Part shown: piece after piece, positions 3 through 64,000 of the stretch
Layout: the number at the start of each line of letters is the position of its first letter
Position numbering within the stretch: position 1 is the stretch's first letter
From: a virus
Taxonomy: Duplodnaviria > Caudoviricetes
Direction: 5' to 3' (one strand)
Virus record (IMG/VR): IMGVR_UViG_3300045391_005708
Coordinates: 16,759 to 80,758 of that record
Length of the DNA: 64,000 nucleotides
The notes under the pieces: generated by a model
Told to the model about the DNA's origin: nothing
What the model saw: the letters and a program-made list of their open reading frames with translations, nothing else
Databases searched by the model: none
Position numbers and translations under genes: made by a program

Positions 3-224
3 ACGCAGCACTGCAGCCCCGCGCCCCCGCCGCACGGCAACCCGCCGCCGAAGCACCCGGCCTCGCCGGGCACGCCGACCGTGGTGGACGCCGGGCTCCC
101 TGCGGGCGGGCGGCACGACGACCGGGGCGGCCTCCTGGCCCTCCTGGGCGCGTGCCTGGGCGGCGTCCTCGCGGCCACCGGCCTCACCCTGGCGCACCAG
201 CGCCGCGTGAAGGCGGGCCGCTGA
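3..224 (+). CDS. C-terminal end (5'-truncated) of a cell-wall-sorted surface protein, class F sortase substrate
   Basis: Manual translation: Pro-rich linker, TPTVVDAG(L) motif at 72-95, hydrophobic LLALLGACLGGVLAATGLTLA, basic tail HQRRVKAGR, TGA 222-224; 1 nt before the sortase start. Confidence 0.75.
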   Translation, partial: TQHCSPAPPPHGNPPPKHPASPGTPTVVDAGLPAGGRHDDRGGLLALLGACLGGVLAATGLTLAHQRRVKAGR

Positions 225-225
225 G

Positions 226-810
226 GTGGGGCGCCTGCCCGGTCTCCTCGTCGCCCTCGGGCTGGCTGTCGCGCTGACGACCGCCCTCCCCTGGCTCGTG
301 GACGGCCCCGGGCGGGCGCCCTCCGAGGCGCCTGCGGCCGCGCCCCCGTCGCGGCCGCAGGCGCCGACCTCCCGGCCGCAGGGCGGCCCGACCATCTCCC
401 CGTCCAGCCGCCCCCCGGAGCGGCTGAGGCTGTGGCACTACGACGCCCCCGTGGTGCCCGTCCGGCCGGTCGGCGGCGTGCTCACGCCCCCGGCCGACGC
501 CTCCGTGCTGGGCTGGTGGGGCCGACCGGCCTGCGCCCGGCGCGGCGCCACGCTCCTGACCGGCCACACGGTCGCGGGGACCGGCGGCGAGTTCGGCGAC
601 CTGGCCGACGTTCCCCTCGGCGCGAGGGCCGACGTGTCCGGCTGCCCCTACCGCGTGGCCAGCGTCCGGCAGGTCCCCTTCTCGGGCTGGCGCCCGGGCC
701 TGCTGGCCCCGACCGGCCCGCCCCGCCTCGTGCTCGTCACGTGCTCCGGCTACCGGGGCGGCGGCGTGTACACGCGGAGCACCGTCGTCGTGCTCCGGCC
801 CGCCGCCTGA
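226..810 (+). CDS. class F sortase
   Basis: N-terminal TM anchor, Pro-rich linker, LTPPAD..LGWW, LLTGHT (His), RLVLVTC (Cys), then STVVV. Confidence 0.85.
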   Translation: MGRLPGLLVALGLAVALTTALPWLVDGPGRAPSEAPAAAPPSRPQAPTSRPQGGPTISPSSRPPERLRLWHYDAPVVPVRPVGGVLTPPADASVLGWWGRPACARRGATLLTGHTVAGTGGEFGDLADVPLGARADVSGCPYRVASVRQVPFSGWRPGLLAPTGPPRLVLVTCSGYRGGGVYTRSTVVVLRPAA

Positions 811-821
811 CCCGGGCGGAC

Positions 822-900
822 GGGAAAACCTCGCCAAAGACTTGCGTTTCTGACCTGGACGTGTTATGCTTCTGCCAACAGCACGACCGAGAGGAAACCG
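822..900 (+). promoter_or_regulatory. early-type promoter copy 1 plus conserved RBS
   Basis: TTGCGT 842-847, 17-nt spacer, TATGCT 865-870; ACCGAGAGGAAACCG 886-900; upstream GGAAAACCTCGCC also seen at 51863 and 62872. Confidence 0.8.
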
Positions 901-2155: not shown

Positions 2156-2380
2156 CTACGGTCGGCCTGTGAGCCGGAGCCGCGCCAGGGCGACCAGGAG
2201 GACGACCAGGACGGGCACCAGGACGGACAGCCACGCCTCGTGCCACCACCCCCAGGCCAGGAGCGCGCCCGCGGCCGAGCAGGCGGCCATGCCCACCCGC
2301 CAGGCGACCTCCGCCCAGCAGGTCGGGTCGGACAGGGCCTGCCTCCAGCCCTGGAACTCAGTCGAGACGCTTCGCCACAT
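2156..2380 (-). CDS. small membrane protein
   Basis: 74 aa, two hydrophobic segments, end of lysis-region operon. Confidence 0.6.
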   Translation of the reverse strand: MWRSVSTEFQGWRQALSDPTCWAEVAWRVGMAACSAAGALLAWGWWHEAWLSVLVPVLVVLLVALARLRLTGRP

Positions 2381-2696
2381 GGCCCACCACGTAGTTCCCC
2401 CCGAAGGCGGCCGCCAGGAAGCGCCACCAGTCCGCCGCGTCGCCGGGGCCGCCCGCCAGGAGCAGGAGGGCCAGCCCGGCCAGGCCGACCCAGAAGCCGA
2501 CGCAGAACGGGCACTCCAGGCCGTCGAGGTACCTGGACCACCCGGGCATGTCCTGCGGCCCGCGCCGGTACGCCCGCTTGTTGAGGGGGAGTTGGATCCA
2601 CAACTTCCCCGGGATCAGGTCCGATGTCACGAGCCTGGACACGCGCAGCGTCGCGAGGAGCCACAGGCCCGCGTCGAGCCACCACCAACCGTTCAC
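2358..2696 (-). CDS. DUF1360-like membrane protein
   Basis: GTG at 2696; LATLRVSRLVTSDLI and LECPFCVGFW signatures, hydrophobic. Confidence 0.75.
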   Translation of the reverse strand: MNGWWWLDAGLWLLATLRVSRLVTSDLIPGKLWIQLPLNKRAYRRGPQDMPGWSRYLDGLECPFCVGFWVGLAGLALLLLAGGPGDAADWWRFLAAAFGGNYVVGHVAKRLD

Positions 2697-2707
2697 TTTC
2701 CCACCTT

Positions 2708-3130
2708 TCAGTCCCGCCAGGGCGGGGTCCGCTTGTTGATCCAGAAGGGCCACTTCAGCGCGAGGACCATGCAGCCCAGGCGCACGTACACGCTCCACCA
2801 AGAGGCCCCGACCGGGCGGTCCGGGCTGGGGTCGGCGCCCGGCAGGTAGCCGGAGAGTTGGAGGCCGATGACCGCGCCGACGAGCAGGAGGGCGCACACG
2901 GCGAGCGCGAGCGCGTGGACGAGCGCGGTGCACTCCCTCCAGGTGGTCATGAGCCGGTAGACCAGGCCGCCGAGGGCGACCCCTCCGTAGGCCGACGACA
3001 CCAGGCGCGGGTCGGCCCCGGCCAGGTAGAGTTCCACGGTCAGCGCCACGCCCGCCGCGCAGAGGGCGAAGAACGACAGGCTGAGGGGGCGCCCGCGGTG
3101 CCGCTCCAGCCGCTCCAGCCACCGCGGCAC
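2708..3130 (-). CDS. multi-pass membrane protein
   Basis: 140 aa, about 4 hydrophobic segments. Confidence 0.7.
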   Translation of the reverse strand: MPRWLERLERHRGRPLSLSFFALCAAGVALTVELYLAGADPRLVSSAYGGVALGGLVYRLMTTWRECTALVHALALAVCALLLVGAVIGLQLSGYLPGADPSPDRPVGASWWSVYVRLGCMVLALKWPFWINKRTPPWRD

Positions 3131-3131
3131 G

Positions 3132-3617
3132 TCAGCAGTCCAGCCGCGGGTAGTCGCCGCTGTCGGCCAGGTGCTGGGAGCGGGCCTCGACCCTGCGCAG
3201 GTGCCTCGTCGCGGCGTCGTACGCGGTGAGCGCCTTCTCGAACTCGGGCAGCAGGGAGTCCTGGAACGCCTGGTCCTGGGGGTGCGCGATCGCCTTGACG
3301 AACACGCCGAGCACGTCGTCCACCGCGGCGTCGTGGGCCTTCTTGGCCTCGTCCAGCCTGCCGCGCTGCTCCACCCGGTCGCGGGTGACCTCGGTGAACT
3401 TCTCGGCCCACGCGTTGAGGCACGCGGCCCGGGCCGTCGTGGCGGCCGCCAGCGCCTTGGCGGTGTCCGCCGCGCCGGTCGCCTTCTTGTTCGCCTCGTG
3501 GCCCTGGAGGCCGATGATGATCACGATCACCGACGCGACGATCACGACGGAGGAGAGGAGGAGCCGGAGGCGCGCGACCTCCTGGGCCGCGTCCCTCTCA
3601 GTCTCGGTCTGGCTCAC
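3132..3617 (-). CDS. membrane-anchored helical protein
   Basis: Single N-terminal TM (LLLSSVVIVASVIVIIIGL) then Ala-rich helix. Confidence 0.75.
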   Translation of the reverse strand: MSQTETERDAAQEVARLRLLLSSVVIVASVIVIIIGLQGHEANKKATGAADTAKALAAATTARAACLNAWAEKFTEVTRDRVEQRGRLDEAKKAHDAAVDDVLGVFVKAIAHPQDQAFQDSLLPEFEKALTAYDAATRHLRRVEARSQHLADSGDYPRLDC

Positions 3618-3753
3618 TGTGCCGCCCTCCCGGTCCGCACTCCAGGACCTTCCTGTCGTGCCAGTCCCTCCAGGAGAATCCTACCCAGAGGCCCACGGGG
3701 ACGCCCACCAGGAAGCCGAGCAGGTTGAACGCGACCGACTCGAAGCACACCGC

Positions 3754-3984
3754 TCACGCACCGCCCCCTTCTCCCCGGTCGTCATCTCCGCCGCGCTTCC
3801 GCCGGAGCAGTTCGTCCACCCCGGCGTAGGCGCCCAGCAGTCCCCCCAGGATCACGCTGGTCGGGTAGCCGTCTGGCCCCACGATGACGATATTGTACCC
3901 GAGGAGGAAGAGGAGGCCGAGCACGACGACGGTCGTGACCCAGGGGTGCAGCCCGCCGCTGCCCCGGTGCCGCATCTGCACCAC
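3754..3984 (-). CDS. small two-TM membrane protein (holin-like)
   Basis: Two TM helices, charged C-terminus RRKRGGDDD. Confidence 0.65.
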   Translation of the reverse strand: MVQMRHRGSGGLHPWVTTVVVLGLLFLLGYNIVIVGPDGYPTSVILGGLLGAYAGVDELLRRKRGGDDDRGEGGGA

Positions 3985-4033
3985 GGCCCCGGCCTCCTCT
4001 CCTCGTGTGCCGCAAAGTCTACCGCCCCGGGGC

Positions 4034-4804
4034 TCAGCGGCGCCGGTGCCGGGGCGCCCTGACCTCGAAGGAGCCCTCGCACAGGAAGTGGTCGGAGGCG
4101 AGCGCGAACTCGCTGTCGTCCAGGACGTCGAAGGACGCGCCGCGCACGCGGCCGTCCCCGTTGTAGGAGGCGATCACGTCGATCGACCCGTGGCCGGTGT
4201 CCTGCCAGTCGCCGAGTTCGTCGGCGAGGCTGGTGAACGGGGCGCCCAGGAACGTGTCGAACTCCCGGTCGGGGATGTTCTGGTCGCCGCCGTAGAAGCA
4301 CAGGTCGGTGCCGCGGCCGAACTCCCGGCCGACCTCCCCGACCTTGGCCGCGATTCGCGTGTTGTCGCGGAGGAACCTCCGGTGCGCGGCGTCCCCGCCG
4401 GGTCGGCCCTCGGTCAGGTAGTGGCTCACGAGGACGGTGAGGTCGCTCTGCACGAGTGGCGAGTGGCCGGTCACGCGCAGGACGCCGCGGTCGGCGAACC
4501 GCCCGGCCACGCCGTCCACTACCTTGTACCACTCCTCCTCCACCGGGCCCTCGAACAGGTCCCGGCGGTGGCAGACCCACACGTCGCCCGCGCGGCCCTT
4601 GCGGAACCGCAGGCCGTGGTCCTGGTCGACCGTCGCGAGGGCCTTCCCGAGGACGGACTGGGGTCCCGCCTCGGTGCCGGTGAGCCACCGCCAGCCGCGC
4701 TTCTCGGCGCGGGCGGCCAGGCGCTTCGCGTCGGCGGTCTGCTGGGGCTGGGTGTCCGAGAACTGGCCGGACGAGTGGGCCACGTCCAGGCGGACGGCGG
4801 TCAC
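4034..4804 (-). CDS. endonuclease/exonuclease/phosphatase (EEP) family hydrolase
   Basis: GTG 4804 overlaps holin stop (GTGA); GTEA, SHYL, GGDQN, IDVI and SDH motifs in EEP order. Confidence 0.8.
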   Translation of the reverse strand: MTAVRLDVAHSSGQFSDTQPQQTADAKRLAARAEKRGWRWLTGTEAGPQSVLGKALATVDQDHGLRFRKGRAGDVWVCHRRDLFEGPVEEEWYKVVDGVAGRFADRGVLRVTGHSPLVQSDLTVLVSHYLTEGRPGGDAAHRRFLRDNTRIAAKVGEVGREFGRGTDLCFYGGDQNIPDREFDTFLGAPFTSLADELGDWQDTGHGSIDVIASYNGDGRVRGASFDVLDDSEFALASDHFLCEGSFEVRAPRHRRR

Positions 4805-5043
4805 CCGGCGCCCCCGACGTGCTCCAGGCCCTTGGCCTTGTTGCGGGTCAGGTGCACGGGGACGCCGACCAGGCCGGAGCCGACGATGCCCGCGACGACC
4901 CACTCGCCGAACTCCTTGAGGCTCGTGCCGCCGTCGTCAGCGATCCACGACCCGAGTACGAGGACCACGAAGGTCAGCGCCGCGGCGACGTACGCCTTGG
5001 TGCTGGTCTGCGGGGTGCCCGGGGCGGGGCTGGGTGTGCTCAT
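4801..5043 (-). CDS. putative holin
   Basis: 80 aa, two TMs, TKAYVAAAL...TRNK; RBS AGGAGG; follows last tail gene. Confidence 0.7.
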   Translation of the reverse strand: MSTPSPAPGTPQTSTKAYVAAALTFVVLVLGSWIADDGGTSLKEFGEWVVAGIVGSGLVGVPVHLTRNKAKGLEHVGGAG

Positions 5044-62920: not shown

Positions 62921-62996
62921 TTGCATTTTACGTCCGCAGGGGGTATAGTTGGACCCAGCGGCGCGAAGAGGCGCCGAAACCGAGAGGAAACCGACA
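62921..62996 (+). promoter_or_regulatory. early-type promoter copy 7 plus RBS
   Basis: TTGCAT 62921-62926, 17 nt, TATAGT 62944-62949; ACCGAGAGGAAACCGAC. Confidence 0.85.
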
Positions 62997-64000
62997 ATGA
63001 CCCACAACATCACCGCCACCGACCGGGTGGGGAGCGTCCGCGACGCGGGCTGGCACAGCCTGGCCGACGTCTGGGACGACCACAAGACCCCCGAGGAGGC
63101 CCGCAAGGCCACCCTCGACTGGGAGCCCGTCACCGAGACGCTGTACCGCGTGGTCGGCATCGACGAGCGCGGCGGCCCGGTCTACGAGCCCGTCCCGGAC
63201 ATGGGCGTCTCCCGCTCCGACACCGGCGAGTACTTCCGCGCCGTGTCCGCCGAGGTCGCGGAGAGCCTGGAGCACGCCAACAACAAGGCCCTGACCGAGG
63301 TCGCCGAGGCCGTCGAGGGCATCGCCGCGGGCGAGGTCAAGGTCGAGACGGCGGGCAGCCTCCAGGGCGGCCGCAAGGTCTGGATGCTCCTGCGGCTGCA
63401 GGAGCCCATCGCCGTCCTGGGCGACCCGAACGGCGAGACGATCCCCTACTTCGCCCTCCAGACCAACCACGACGGCCGGGGCTCGTTCCGCGGGCAGGCG
63501 CTGTTCACCCGGATCATCTGCGACAACACCGCGCAGGCCGCCGACCTGGAGGCCAAGAGGCGGGGCACGGAGTTCACGTTCCACCACACGTCCGGCCTGA
63601 AGGACCGGATCGAGCAGGCCAAGGGCGCCGTCGCCCTGTGGCGCGAGGACCTGCAGTTCTGGCAGGCCCTCATGGCCGACCTGGTGAACATCAAGGTCAC
63701 CAAGAAGCAGAAGGCGCTGTTCGTGGACGCCTGGGGGCCGACCCGGTACCCGAAGCAGGGCGTCGAGATCTCGGACCGCGTGCGCCAGAACATCGAGAAC
63801 GCCCGCGACGAGTTCTCCGGCATCCTCAACGGCCCGACCAGCGAGGGCGTCGCCGACACCGCCTACGGCCTCTTCCAGGCCACCGTCGAGTTCCAGCAGC
63901 ACGTCAAGGGCCTGCGCGGCGCGACCGACCTGGCCAAGGCCGAGTCCAAGTTCAACCGCGCGTACCTGCAGCGCGACGACCTGATCCAGGGCGCAGTCGC
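62997..64000 (+). CDS. DUF932 family protein (3'-truncated by window, absent from ORF track)
   Basis: Manual translation: AGWHSL, ETAGSLQGGRKVW, NHDGRGS, RIICDNT, FHHTSG. Confidence 0.85.
   Translation, partial: MTHNITATDRVGSVRDAGWHSLADVWDDHKTPEEARKATLDWEPVTETLYRVVGIDERGGPVYEPVPDMGVSRSDTGEYFRAVSAEVAESLEHANNKALTEVAEAVEGIAAGEVKVETAGSLQGGRKVWMLLRLQEPIAVLGDPNGETIPYFALQTNHDGRGSFRGQALFTRIICDNTAQAADLEAKRRGTEFTFHHTSGLKDRIEQAKGAVALWREDLQFWQALMADLVNIKVTKKQKALFVDAWGPTRYPKQGVEISDRVRQNIENARDEFSGILNGPTSEGVADTAYGLFQATVEFQQHVKGLRGATDLAKAESKFNRAYLQRDDLIQGAV

Follow-up and report, generated by a model that had tools for sequence, protein, structure and literature searches.

Bases 3–810 of the DNA analysed here, a stretch of 64,000 nt that we call the window, carry the 3′ end of a gene for a secreted protein and, one base further on, a gene for a sortase. 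The window corresponds to bases 16759–80758 of an 80,758 bp IMG/VR virus record (IMGVR_UViG_3300045391_005708) of an uncultured phage, and we put at roughly two in three (0.68) the probability that the two genes form a self-contained cassette for surface display, carried by the phage and taken from Nocardioidaceae/Kribbellaceae-type hosts, that anchors the secreted protein (the passenger, or substrate) to the wall. That the phage carries a sortase together with its own substrate was first proposed in a sequence-only reading of the window, and the proposal is supported by the phage context of the genes, by the sortase fold and the catalytic His and Cys residues of the enzyme, and by the conserved pairing of enzyme and substrate.

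Genomic context of the gene pair

The virus record has a 64 bp terminal repeat and a completeness rating of 100 %, and the 16.7 kb that lie 5′ of window base 1 belong to the same record. When this missing segment was retrieved and its genes were called from the G+C content at third codon positions (GC3), it was found to contain phage genes and not bacterial chromosome, so that the scenario of a host chromosome with an attachment site next to the pair fails. The genome is organized in two arms, with a plus-strand arm extending from about genome coordinate 63993 across the record ends to 18720, and a minus-strand arm between 18914 and 63774. Upstream of the cassette the plus arm encodes a DUF2800 PD-(D/E)XK nuclease (E-value, 2e-89), an Enc34-type single-stranded DNA-binding protein (E-value, 2.5e-44) and a family A DNA polymerase. 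The minus arm carries the tail fibre, tape measure, portal, large terminase and primase genes, and that for a major head protein (phrog_777; E-value, 1.6e-151) which is 37–45 % identical to the head proteins of Microbacterium, Gordonia and Mycobacterium phages. The pair itself sits about 16 kb inside the record ends, with phage genes on both sides. Since the virus record is complete, with replication genes upstream of the pair and tail, head, portal and terminase genes downstream, and since a second contig (L010) is syntenic and has, like the genome described here, a phage promoter-like box and a ribosome-binding tag ahead of the substrate gene, the substrate and sortase genes are phage genes.

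The secreted substrate and its sorting signal

Reading frame 3 of the plus strand has no stop codon between window base 3 and the TGA at 222–224, and this segment is the 3′ end of a gene whose start lies 840 bases 5′ of the window (genome 15918–16982; window −840 to 224) and whose product is a secreted protein of 354 aa. GC3 values of 0.95–0.99, like those of the neighbouring genes, are found in exactly the substrate and sortase frames, and both are therefore coding. The protein consists of a Sec signal peptide ending in ASA, three beta-sandwich domains, a disordered proline-rich stalk with H/N-N-P-P repeats, and a C-terminal sorting signal. As read from the sequence, this signal comprises the motif PTVVDAGL (window 75–98), a charged spacer of nine residues, a hydrophobic helix of 23 residues (window 126–194; residues 324–353 are helical in the AlphaFold2 model) and the basic tail HQRRVKAGR (window 195–221), directly before the stop codon. 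All the parts of a sorting signal, from the signal peptide to the C-terminal motif, spacer, 23-residue hydrophobic stretch and basic tail, are thus present, and an open reading frame (ORF) end with PTVVDAG, a hydrophobic helix and a basic tail 1 nt before the sortase, as originally described, is indeed what the sequence contains. A motif of the PTVVDAGL type occurs only once in the phage genome.

The AlphaFold2 model of the substrate (predicted local distance difference test score, pLDDT, 81.6) gave only generic matches to immunoglobulin (Ig) and fibronectin type III (FnIII) sandwiches (Z ≤ 7.8, VIA-align), and a Foldseek search with it found nothing below an E-value of 0.001; because the matches are generic, the fold gives no indication of function. 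The first module of the passenger has the conserved pattern W-x-W-S-P-N ... G-G-P ... W-F-H-R-E and is shared by 438 representative proteins (E-value ≤ 0.001), of which 154 were inspected at their C-termini. A classical LxxTG signal (LAxTG or LPxTG) with a helix and a basic tail is present in 72 of the 154, PTxVDAGL with helix and tail in eight, and an exact end at ...AGL in seven, while a few end in ...ETGL, ...EEGL, ...EEGM or ...EEGF; one close passenger homologue has LPNAGL. Because the family is found mostly on classical wall-anchored proteins, the passenger appears to be an ordinary actinobacterial wall-protein module in which the address tag has been exchanged to suit the local sortase. 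The variants LPNAGL, ...SETGL and ...EEGL suggest cleavage at [A/T/E]|G, the counterpart of the T|G cut in LPXTG. We note that five of the homologues (P0066, P0071, P0072, P0076 and P0079) are short secreted proteins that end in ...EEGL, ...ETGL, ...EEGM or ...EEGF without a helix or tail, and these may be further sortase substrates that lack an anchor. No PHROGs family was found for either the substrate or the sortase.

A divergent class F-like sortase

The sortase gene (genome 16984–17568; plus strand) begins with a GTG codon at window base 226, one base after the substrate stop, and the ORF of 194 aa ends at 810. Its product has an N-terminal membrane helix (residues 4–25), a proline-rich linker and a catalytic domain (residues 64–194). 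In an alignment of 108 sequences (21 sortases from phage contexts and 87 from bacteria), His114 (codon at window 565–567, within LLTGHT) and Cys173 (codon at 742–744, within LVLVTC) are invariant; Cys173 aligns with Cys184 of Staphylococcus aureus SrtA, and His114 with the sortase His of PDB chains. When a profile built from 22 relatives was searched against the PDB, only sortases were found, with the TGH and TC motifs aligned with the catalytic His and Cys. The AlphaFold2 model of the enzyme (pLDDT 85) gave 98 Foldseek matches in the PDB at an E-value ≤ 0.001. The leading matches, each with a probability of 1.0, are without exception to sortases (classes A, C and E), and the model has the eight-stranded beta-barrel of this fold. 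The identification of the product as a sortase with GHT and LVTC motifs is thereby confirmed by sequence, profile and structural comparison. PF04203, the Pfam sortase family, is carried by relatives of the enzyme in precomputed annotation. The public gene call of the sortase (P0002) uses an internal start and, at 119 aa, covers 61 % of the ORF, with loss of the membrane helix and linker.

Class F is the best-scoring NCBIfam sortase class for the window protein and for every relative tested, and the enzyme belongs to a divergent, class F-like branch of the sortases. All sortases are said to have a His-Cys-Arg triad (PMC8225981). In the window protein the counterpart of the catalytic SrtA residue Arg197 (HMMER alignment) is Ser185 (codon AGC at window 778–780), and the other aligned sequences have Asn in this column, so that the branch departs from this rule. 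The Ser185 codon is one base away from AAC, and the residue before it, Arg184, is found in the window protein only. Ser185 may have weakened this copy of the sortase, and it could be either a true weakening mutation or an assembly error.

Pairing of enzyme and motif in bacteria

A scan of species-representative genomes yielded 459 relatives of the sortase, and the best 80 of these loci, from Nocardioides, Kribbella, Marmoricola and uncultured Actinomycetota, were analysed. At 75 of the 80 a co-oriented neighbouring ORF, usually ending 60–300 bases before the sortase, carries a tag near its C-terminus, with the consensus V(64)-P(75)-T(66)-x-V/I(75)-D(59)-A(74)-G(75), where the numbers give occurrences among the 75 loci. 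Beyond the tag come a spacer, a hydrophobic segment and a basic tail, with the end of the protein 35–58 residues past the Gly. As a control, the bodies of the ORFs at the same loci were searched, and the tag pattern was found three times in 342,397 residues. The residue after the Gly varies in bacteria (L, E, Q and others) and is Leu in all phage copies. From these counts and the phage cassettes described below, the pairing of motif and enzyme is near universal in bacteria and phages. The sequence-only reading had linked class F sortases to P-x-x-V-x-AG substrates, and this holds at the 75 bacterial loci, although the literature that we reviewed gives only LPXTG for the one characterized enzyme of the class.

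The cassette in other phages

The closest homologues of the sortase are metagenome proteins (44–60 % identity; E-values, 1e-28 to 1e-58), with bacterial class F proteins appearing only at an E-value of 1e-15. The same two-gene cassette was found on at least nine other phage contigs, and for nine contigs phage origin is confirmed by gene context. L010, an 18 kb contig from another sample, is syntenic with the phage described here across the polymerase, the glycan-enzyme cluster, the cassette and the lysis and tail genes; the neighbouring genes are 50–94 % identical, but the substrate and sortase only 54–58 %. In L008/L009 (56.8 kb) and L017/L018 the pair lies among early genes, in L012 (56.3 kb) and L014/L015 it is beside tail and tape-measure genes, and it is also present in the IMG/VR contigs L021/L022 (55.7 kb), L023 (82.7 kb) and L024. 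A scan of IMG/VR with an alignment-based profile recovered five contigs, and a scan with the single protein none. Every intact phage case has a secreted protein encoded directly upstream of the sortase, with a 1 base gap or an overlap between the genes, and in four phage substrates that are 33–50 % identical overall the sole invariant run is P-T-x-V-D-A-G-L. A degenerate sortase gene is present in L025, a 29 kb IMG/VR contig (5980–6324), where the N-terminus is truncated and GYT replaces GHT (His to Tyr); no gene with the motif precedes it.

In a maximum-likelihood tree of the 108 aligned sequences, the 21 phage-context sortases fall on one side of a branch with full support (Shimodaira–Hasegawa-like approximate likelihood ratio test, 100); phage origin is established by gene context for nine of these and assumed for the 12 that are on short contigs. 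The tree indicates that the cassette has been inherited in phages as one clade. Within it there are two designs, which correspond to two sub-clades. In the first (the window phage, L010, L008 and L017/18) the substrate has the motif, spacer, helix and basic tail, while a plain membrane helix forms the N-terminus of the sortase. In the second (L012, L014, L021, L023 and L024) nothing follows the motif in the substrate, the C-terminal ends being ...PTVVDAGL, ...PVAVNAGL, ...PTIVKAGL, ...PTEVVGGL and ...PTVIDAGL, and the sortases begin with a lipoprotein box, L-x-[GS]-C. Since the two designs are two sub-clades, the correlation between substrate design and type of sortase may have arisen once in evolution and not by co-variation on repeated occasions. 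From the anchor-less design it can be argued that the enzyme serves for transfer and not just for release from the membrane, and the design implies that the leaving group may be as short as Gly-Leu.

Expression signals

The plus arm of the phage genome contains a promoter-like box, TTGCAT-N17-TATGAT, often with GCACGTG just 5′ of the −10 element, followed after 25–50 bases by a leader and start tag, CCGAGAGGAAACCG. A direct pattern search found nine copies of this layout of box and tag, in the plus arm only. A divergent box, CTGCGT-N17-TACGAT, in which GCACGTG is intact (genome 15830–15858), lies ahead of the substrate gene, and the tag GAGAGGAAACC (genome 15901–15910) stands directly before the substrate ATG, after a small hairpin; L010 has the same layout of box and tag ahead of its substrate gene. 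On the other side of the pair is an element at window 822–900 (plus strand), with an A-rich block from about 822, a −35 sequence TTGCGT at 842–847 and a −10 sequence TATGCT at 865–870, and with the leader tag GAGAGGAAAC at 889–898 before an ATG at 901. This element, which serves the following gene (901–1140), delimits the cassette on its 3′ side. The repeated promoter element noticed after the sortase stop is therefore real, and the two further copies cited with it, for which upstream edges had been given, have their −35 sequences at window 51884 and 62921. A simple sigma-70 scanner reported no promoter near the pair, the phage boxes (TTGCAT/TATGAT) falling short of its thresholds. Because phage promoters bound it, the pair is probably a separate transcription unit, with the two genes translationally coupled through the 1 base gap; such a gap or overlap is also present in the relatives L010, L008, L017 and L012.

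Proposed mechanism

The cleavage site, wall attachment, early timing and biological role in the following model are ones that we infer. A copy of the sigma-70-like early promoter of the phage would drive transcription of the pair, and translation of the two genes would be coupled. The 354 aa protein would be exported through the Sec pathway and, in this phage, its C-terminal helix and basic tail would keep it in the membrane. The membrane-anchored sortase would then recognize V/P-T-x-V-D-A-G-L and cut it, with the Ala-Gly bond as the probable site if the T|G cut in LPXTG is taken as a guide. A thioacyl intermediate on Cys173 would be resolved by transfer of the Ig-like, proline-stalked passenger to a host peptidoglycan precursor, and the infected cell would then show a covalently bound phage protein. 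The most likely mechanism is thus one in which the passenger becomes covalently anchored to the wall of the host at an early stage of infection. The most plausible guess at its role is that it hides or changes the wall that other phages or released progeny would meet. Receptor masking or exclusion is a reasonable guess, and adhesion, which the sequence-only reading also proposed, is likewise a guess.

A broader proposal, which we regard as possible but on balance doubtful, is that a so far uncatalogued class F-like branch of sortases, with His-Cys-Asn, has V-P-T-x-V-D-A-G(-L) as its natural signal, that phages captured this system and have long kept it, and that in the second design a lipoprotein enzyme anchors a freely secreted protein with Gly-Leu as the leaving group.

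Evidence against and alternative explanations

Several observations weigh against wall anchoring by a class F-like enzyme. Although class F is the best-matching class, as had been proposed from the window, the assignment is far below the cut-off of the class F profile (NF033748, 166 bits), with the canonical Arg absent: the window protein scores 18.4 bits, phage relatives 33–47 bits and bacterial relatives 72–81 bits, all of them under 166. The score of the window protein against PF04203 (24.3 bits; E-value, 2.8e-5) does not reach the gathering cut-off of 26.6. At the SrtA Arg197 column 107 of the 108 sequences have Asn, and Ser185 of the window protein is the sole exception. The window substrate has no match to the GVDTG sorting domain (NF058571) at an E-value ≤ 10; with this profile (cut-off 29 bits) the L008 substrate scores 18 bits over the helix and not the motif, the L017 substrate scores 12.8, and the two bacterial partner proteins tested gave no match. 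The substrates of the second design are without a membrane anchor, which the textbook mechanism neither needs nor explains. In Actinoplanes, a quadruple deletion of class F genes was without phenotype (PMC13251363). Finally, a search of phage databases had been suggested for synteny: the 50,697 deposited phage genomes gave no match in tblastn, whether the query was the window sortase, its relative from a phage or one from a bacterium, so that a cultured phage with this cassette was not found. The cassette is present in phage contigs from metagenomes and IMG/VR.

The alternative that survives best, though we consider it unlikely, is that the enzyme processes or sheds the passenger, with water as the nucleophile, such that the tail is cut off and the passenger is released to the wall zone or the medium and is not covalently anchored. 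Sortases are able to hydrolyse their substrates in vitro, and the absence of the canonical Arg is in keeping with such an activity. The class F knockouts without a wall phenotype (PMC13251363) also fit. The motif and the sortase are, however, strictly kept where the substrate is already anchor-less and ends in ...AGL, which would be senseless if release were the sole purpose, and a proline-rich stalk is typical of anchored proteins that span the wall.

We give slightly less credence to decay of the cargo, in which the cassette works in relatives and the window copy is inactive through replacement of Asn by Ser at position 185. That residue is the only exception among the 108 sequences at its column and differs by a single base, and the truncated His-to-Tyr copy in L025 demonstrates that degenerate forms exist. 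Against this, both ORFs are intact with GC3 values of 0.95–0.99; this copy retains the motif, both catalytic residues (His and Cys) and the coupling, together with its promoter box and ribosome-binding tag; and Ser is still able to donate a hydrogen bond.

Transfer of the passenger to some other acceptor, either a protein, giving a pilus-like polymer, or a wall glycopolymer, seems quite improbable. Class C sortases act in this way, the passenger shares with pilins a construction from Ig-like domains, and a cluster of seven glycan enzymes is encoded just upstream in the window phage. The passenger, however, has only four lysines, and the pilin reading was rejected because a YPK motif of the pilin type is absent; the glycan cluster is unlinked to the cassette in L008, L012, L014 and L017; and a single motif-bearing protein is encoded.

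That the pair is not phage DNA at all, being host sequence joined by mis-assembly or the flank of a prophage, is very improbable: the record is a metagenome assembly and the nearest cellular relatives of the genes are bacterial, but the pair is 16 kb from the record ends and between phage genes, its order is the same in the independent contig L010 from another sample, it carries the promoter box and start tag of the phage itself, its sortase falls in a phage-only clade, and an integrase was not found. On these grounds we rejected a host flank, a prophage and a chimera as explanations, with the proviso that the search of the phage genome for tyrosine and serine recombinases, which found none, is only moderately strong, since the same profile search overlooked the known sortase (PF04203). 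With these alternatives set out, a cassette that anchors a passenger to the host wall is the reading that we prefer.

Neighbouring genes

The glycan-enzyme cluster adjoins the cassette on its 5′ side (genome 8755–15811, plus arm), ending 947 bases before the window, and is syntenic in L010. It encodes an NAD-dependent epimerase/dehydratase, a WhiB protein, a GT1-like glycosyltransferase, a 2-oxoglutarate-Fe(II) oxygenase, two methyltransferases, a phrog_16701 'peptidase' and a GT2 glycosyltransferase. One gene within the cluster (genome 10148–11017) has no Pfam or PHROG family, and homologues of its product (219 aa; 40–42 % identity) are encoded next to the cassette in L012 (10870–11529) and L014 (2786–3445, minus strand).

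Downstream, a minus-strand run of genes at window 2156–5043 converges on the cassette and encodes the small membrane proteins that end the late arm, one of them with a weak Rz-like spanin match; the run also includes a 255 aa protein without a family. These small membrane proteins are probably a lysis module. The cassette is at the same convergent junction in L010, L012 and L014. Near the end of the record, a promoter box and start tag at genome 79679–79752 (window 62921–63000) point to a plus-strand gene from about genome 79752, where the GC3 caller instead gave two minus-strand ORFs at genome 79940–80617 (window 63182–63859), and the gene calls in this region are thus doubtful.

Relationship to known systems

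The nearest precedent, also the first report of phage-encoded sortases, describes 24 sortase B genes in huge phages of the gut, each with a PXTG substrate upstream (bioRxiv 10.64898/2026.10.24.761521, 24 October 2026). Those modules resemble the cassette described here in that a phage sortase has a putative substrate gene directly upstream and that the use proposed for them is to present proteins of the phage at the surface of the host cell. They differ in that their enzymes are of class B, with His-Cys-Arg and PXTG, and come from phages of more than 200 kb that infect gut Bacillota, whereas those described here are class F-like, with His-Cys-Asn/Ser and V/P-T-x-V-D-A-G-L, are found in phages of 56–83 kb from high-G+C soil Actinomycetota, and include a sister branch with anchor-less substrates and lipoprotein sortases. 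What is new relative to the sortase B modules is therefore the class, the host phylum, the uncatalogued tag, the absence of the canonical Arg and the anchor-less sister design. The view that such a pair is not commonly described phage cargo stands in so far as the literature searched has no mention of a phage class F sortase, and has to be modified in that the sortase B pairs have been reported.

Among cellular enzymes, class F sortases are widespread in Actinomycetota, and their physiological roles and natural substrates were described as unknown as of 2026 (PMC13251363). The passages on class F in PMC8225981 and PMC13251363 present SrtF of Propionibacterium (Cutibacterium) acnes (Di Girolamo et al. 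2019, as cited there) as the sole characterized enzyme, with specificity for LPXTG. As portrayed in those passages, SrtF is of the same class, is likewise a membrane-anchored transpeptidase and comes from an actinobacterium of the Propionibacteriales, but it is a housekeeping enzyme for LPXTG, and the enzyme described here is dedicated to one neighbour with another motif. Cellular class F enzymes (NF033748, IPR042001) and their GVDTG neighbours (NF058571) share with the cassette the class, the principle of one enzyme for one cargo and a non-LPXTG signal of the form V-D-[T/A]-G; the subgroup described here, however, scores 18–81 bits against the cut-off of 166, and its motif is V-P-T-x-V-D-A-G and not the glycine-rich GVDTG. 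Class E enzymes (Streptomyces SrtE1/E2, Thermobifida SrtE) are similar in that the passenger module is mostly found on LAxTG/LPxTG proteins and in that the similarity of fold is comparable, but their profile scores are below those of class F or absent, and their motif is different.

A functional parallel is Llp of phage T5, an early lipoprotein made in a Gram-negative host that blocks the receptor of the phage itself and involves neither a covalent wall link nor a dedicated enzyme. The likeness is one of proposed function only, in that an early, envelope-anchored protein of a virulent phage would alter the surface of the infected cell, and there is no relationship in sequence or fold.

Biological significance

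If the broader proposal is true, sortase anchoring would occur without a membrane-retention signal, and virulent phages would re-dress the wall of the cells that they infect. The strict pairing of one enzyme with one cargo and the conserved eight-residue tag, seen at 75 of 80 bacterial loci and in every intact phage cassette examined, provide a testable substrate for class F sortases. As a short, orthogonal combination of tag and enzyme, the pair could be of use in protein ligation. The anchor-less branch and the missing Arg challenge textbook rules of sortase substrates and catalysis. The cassette extends phage sortases to another class, to soil actinophages of ordinary size and to another host phylum, and covalent decoration of the host wall may thus be a recurrent phage strategy.

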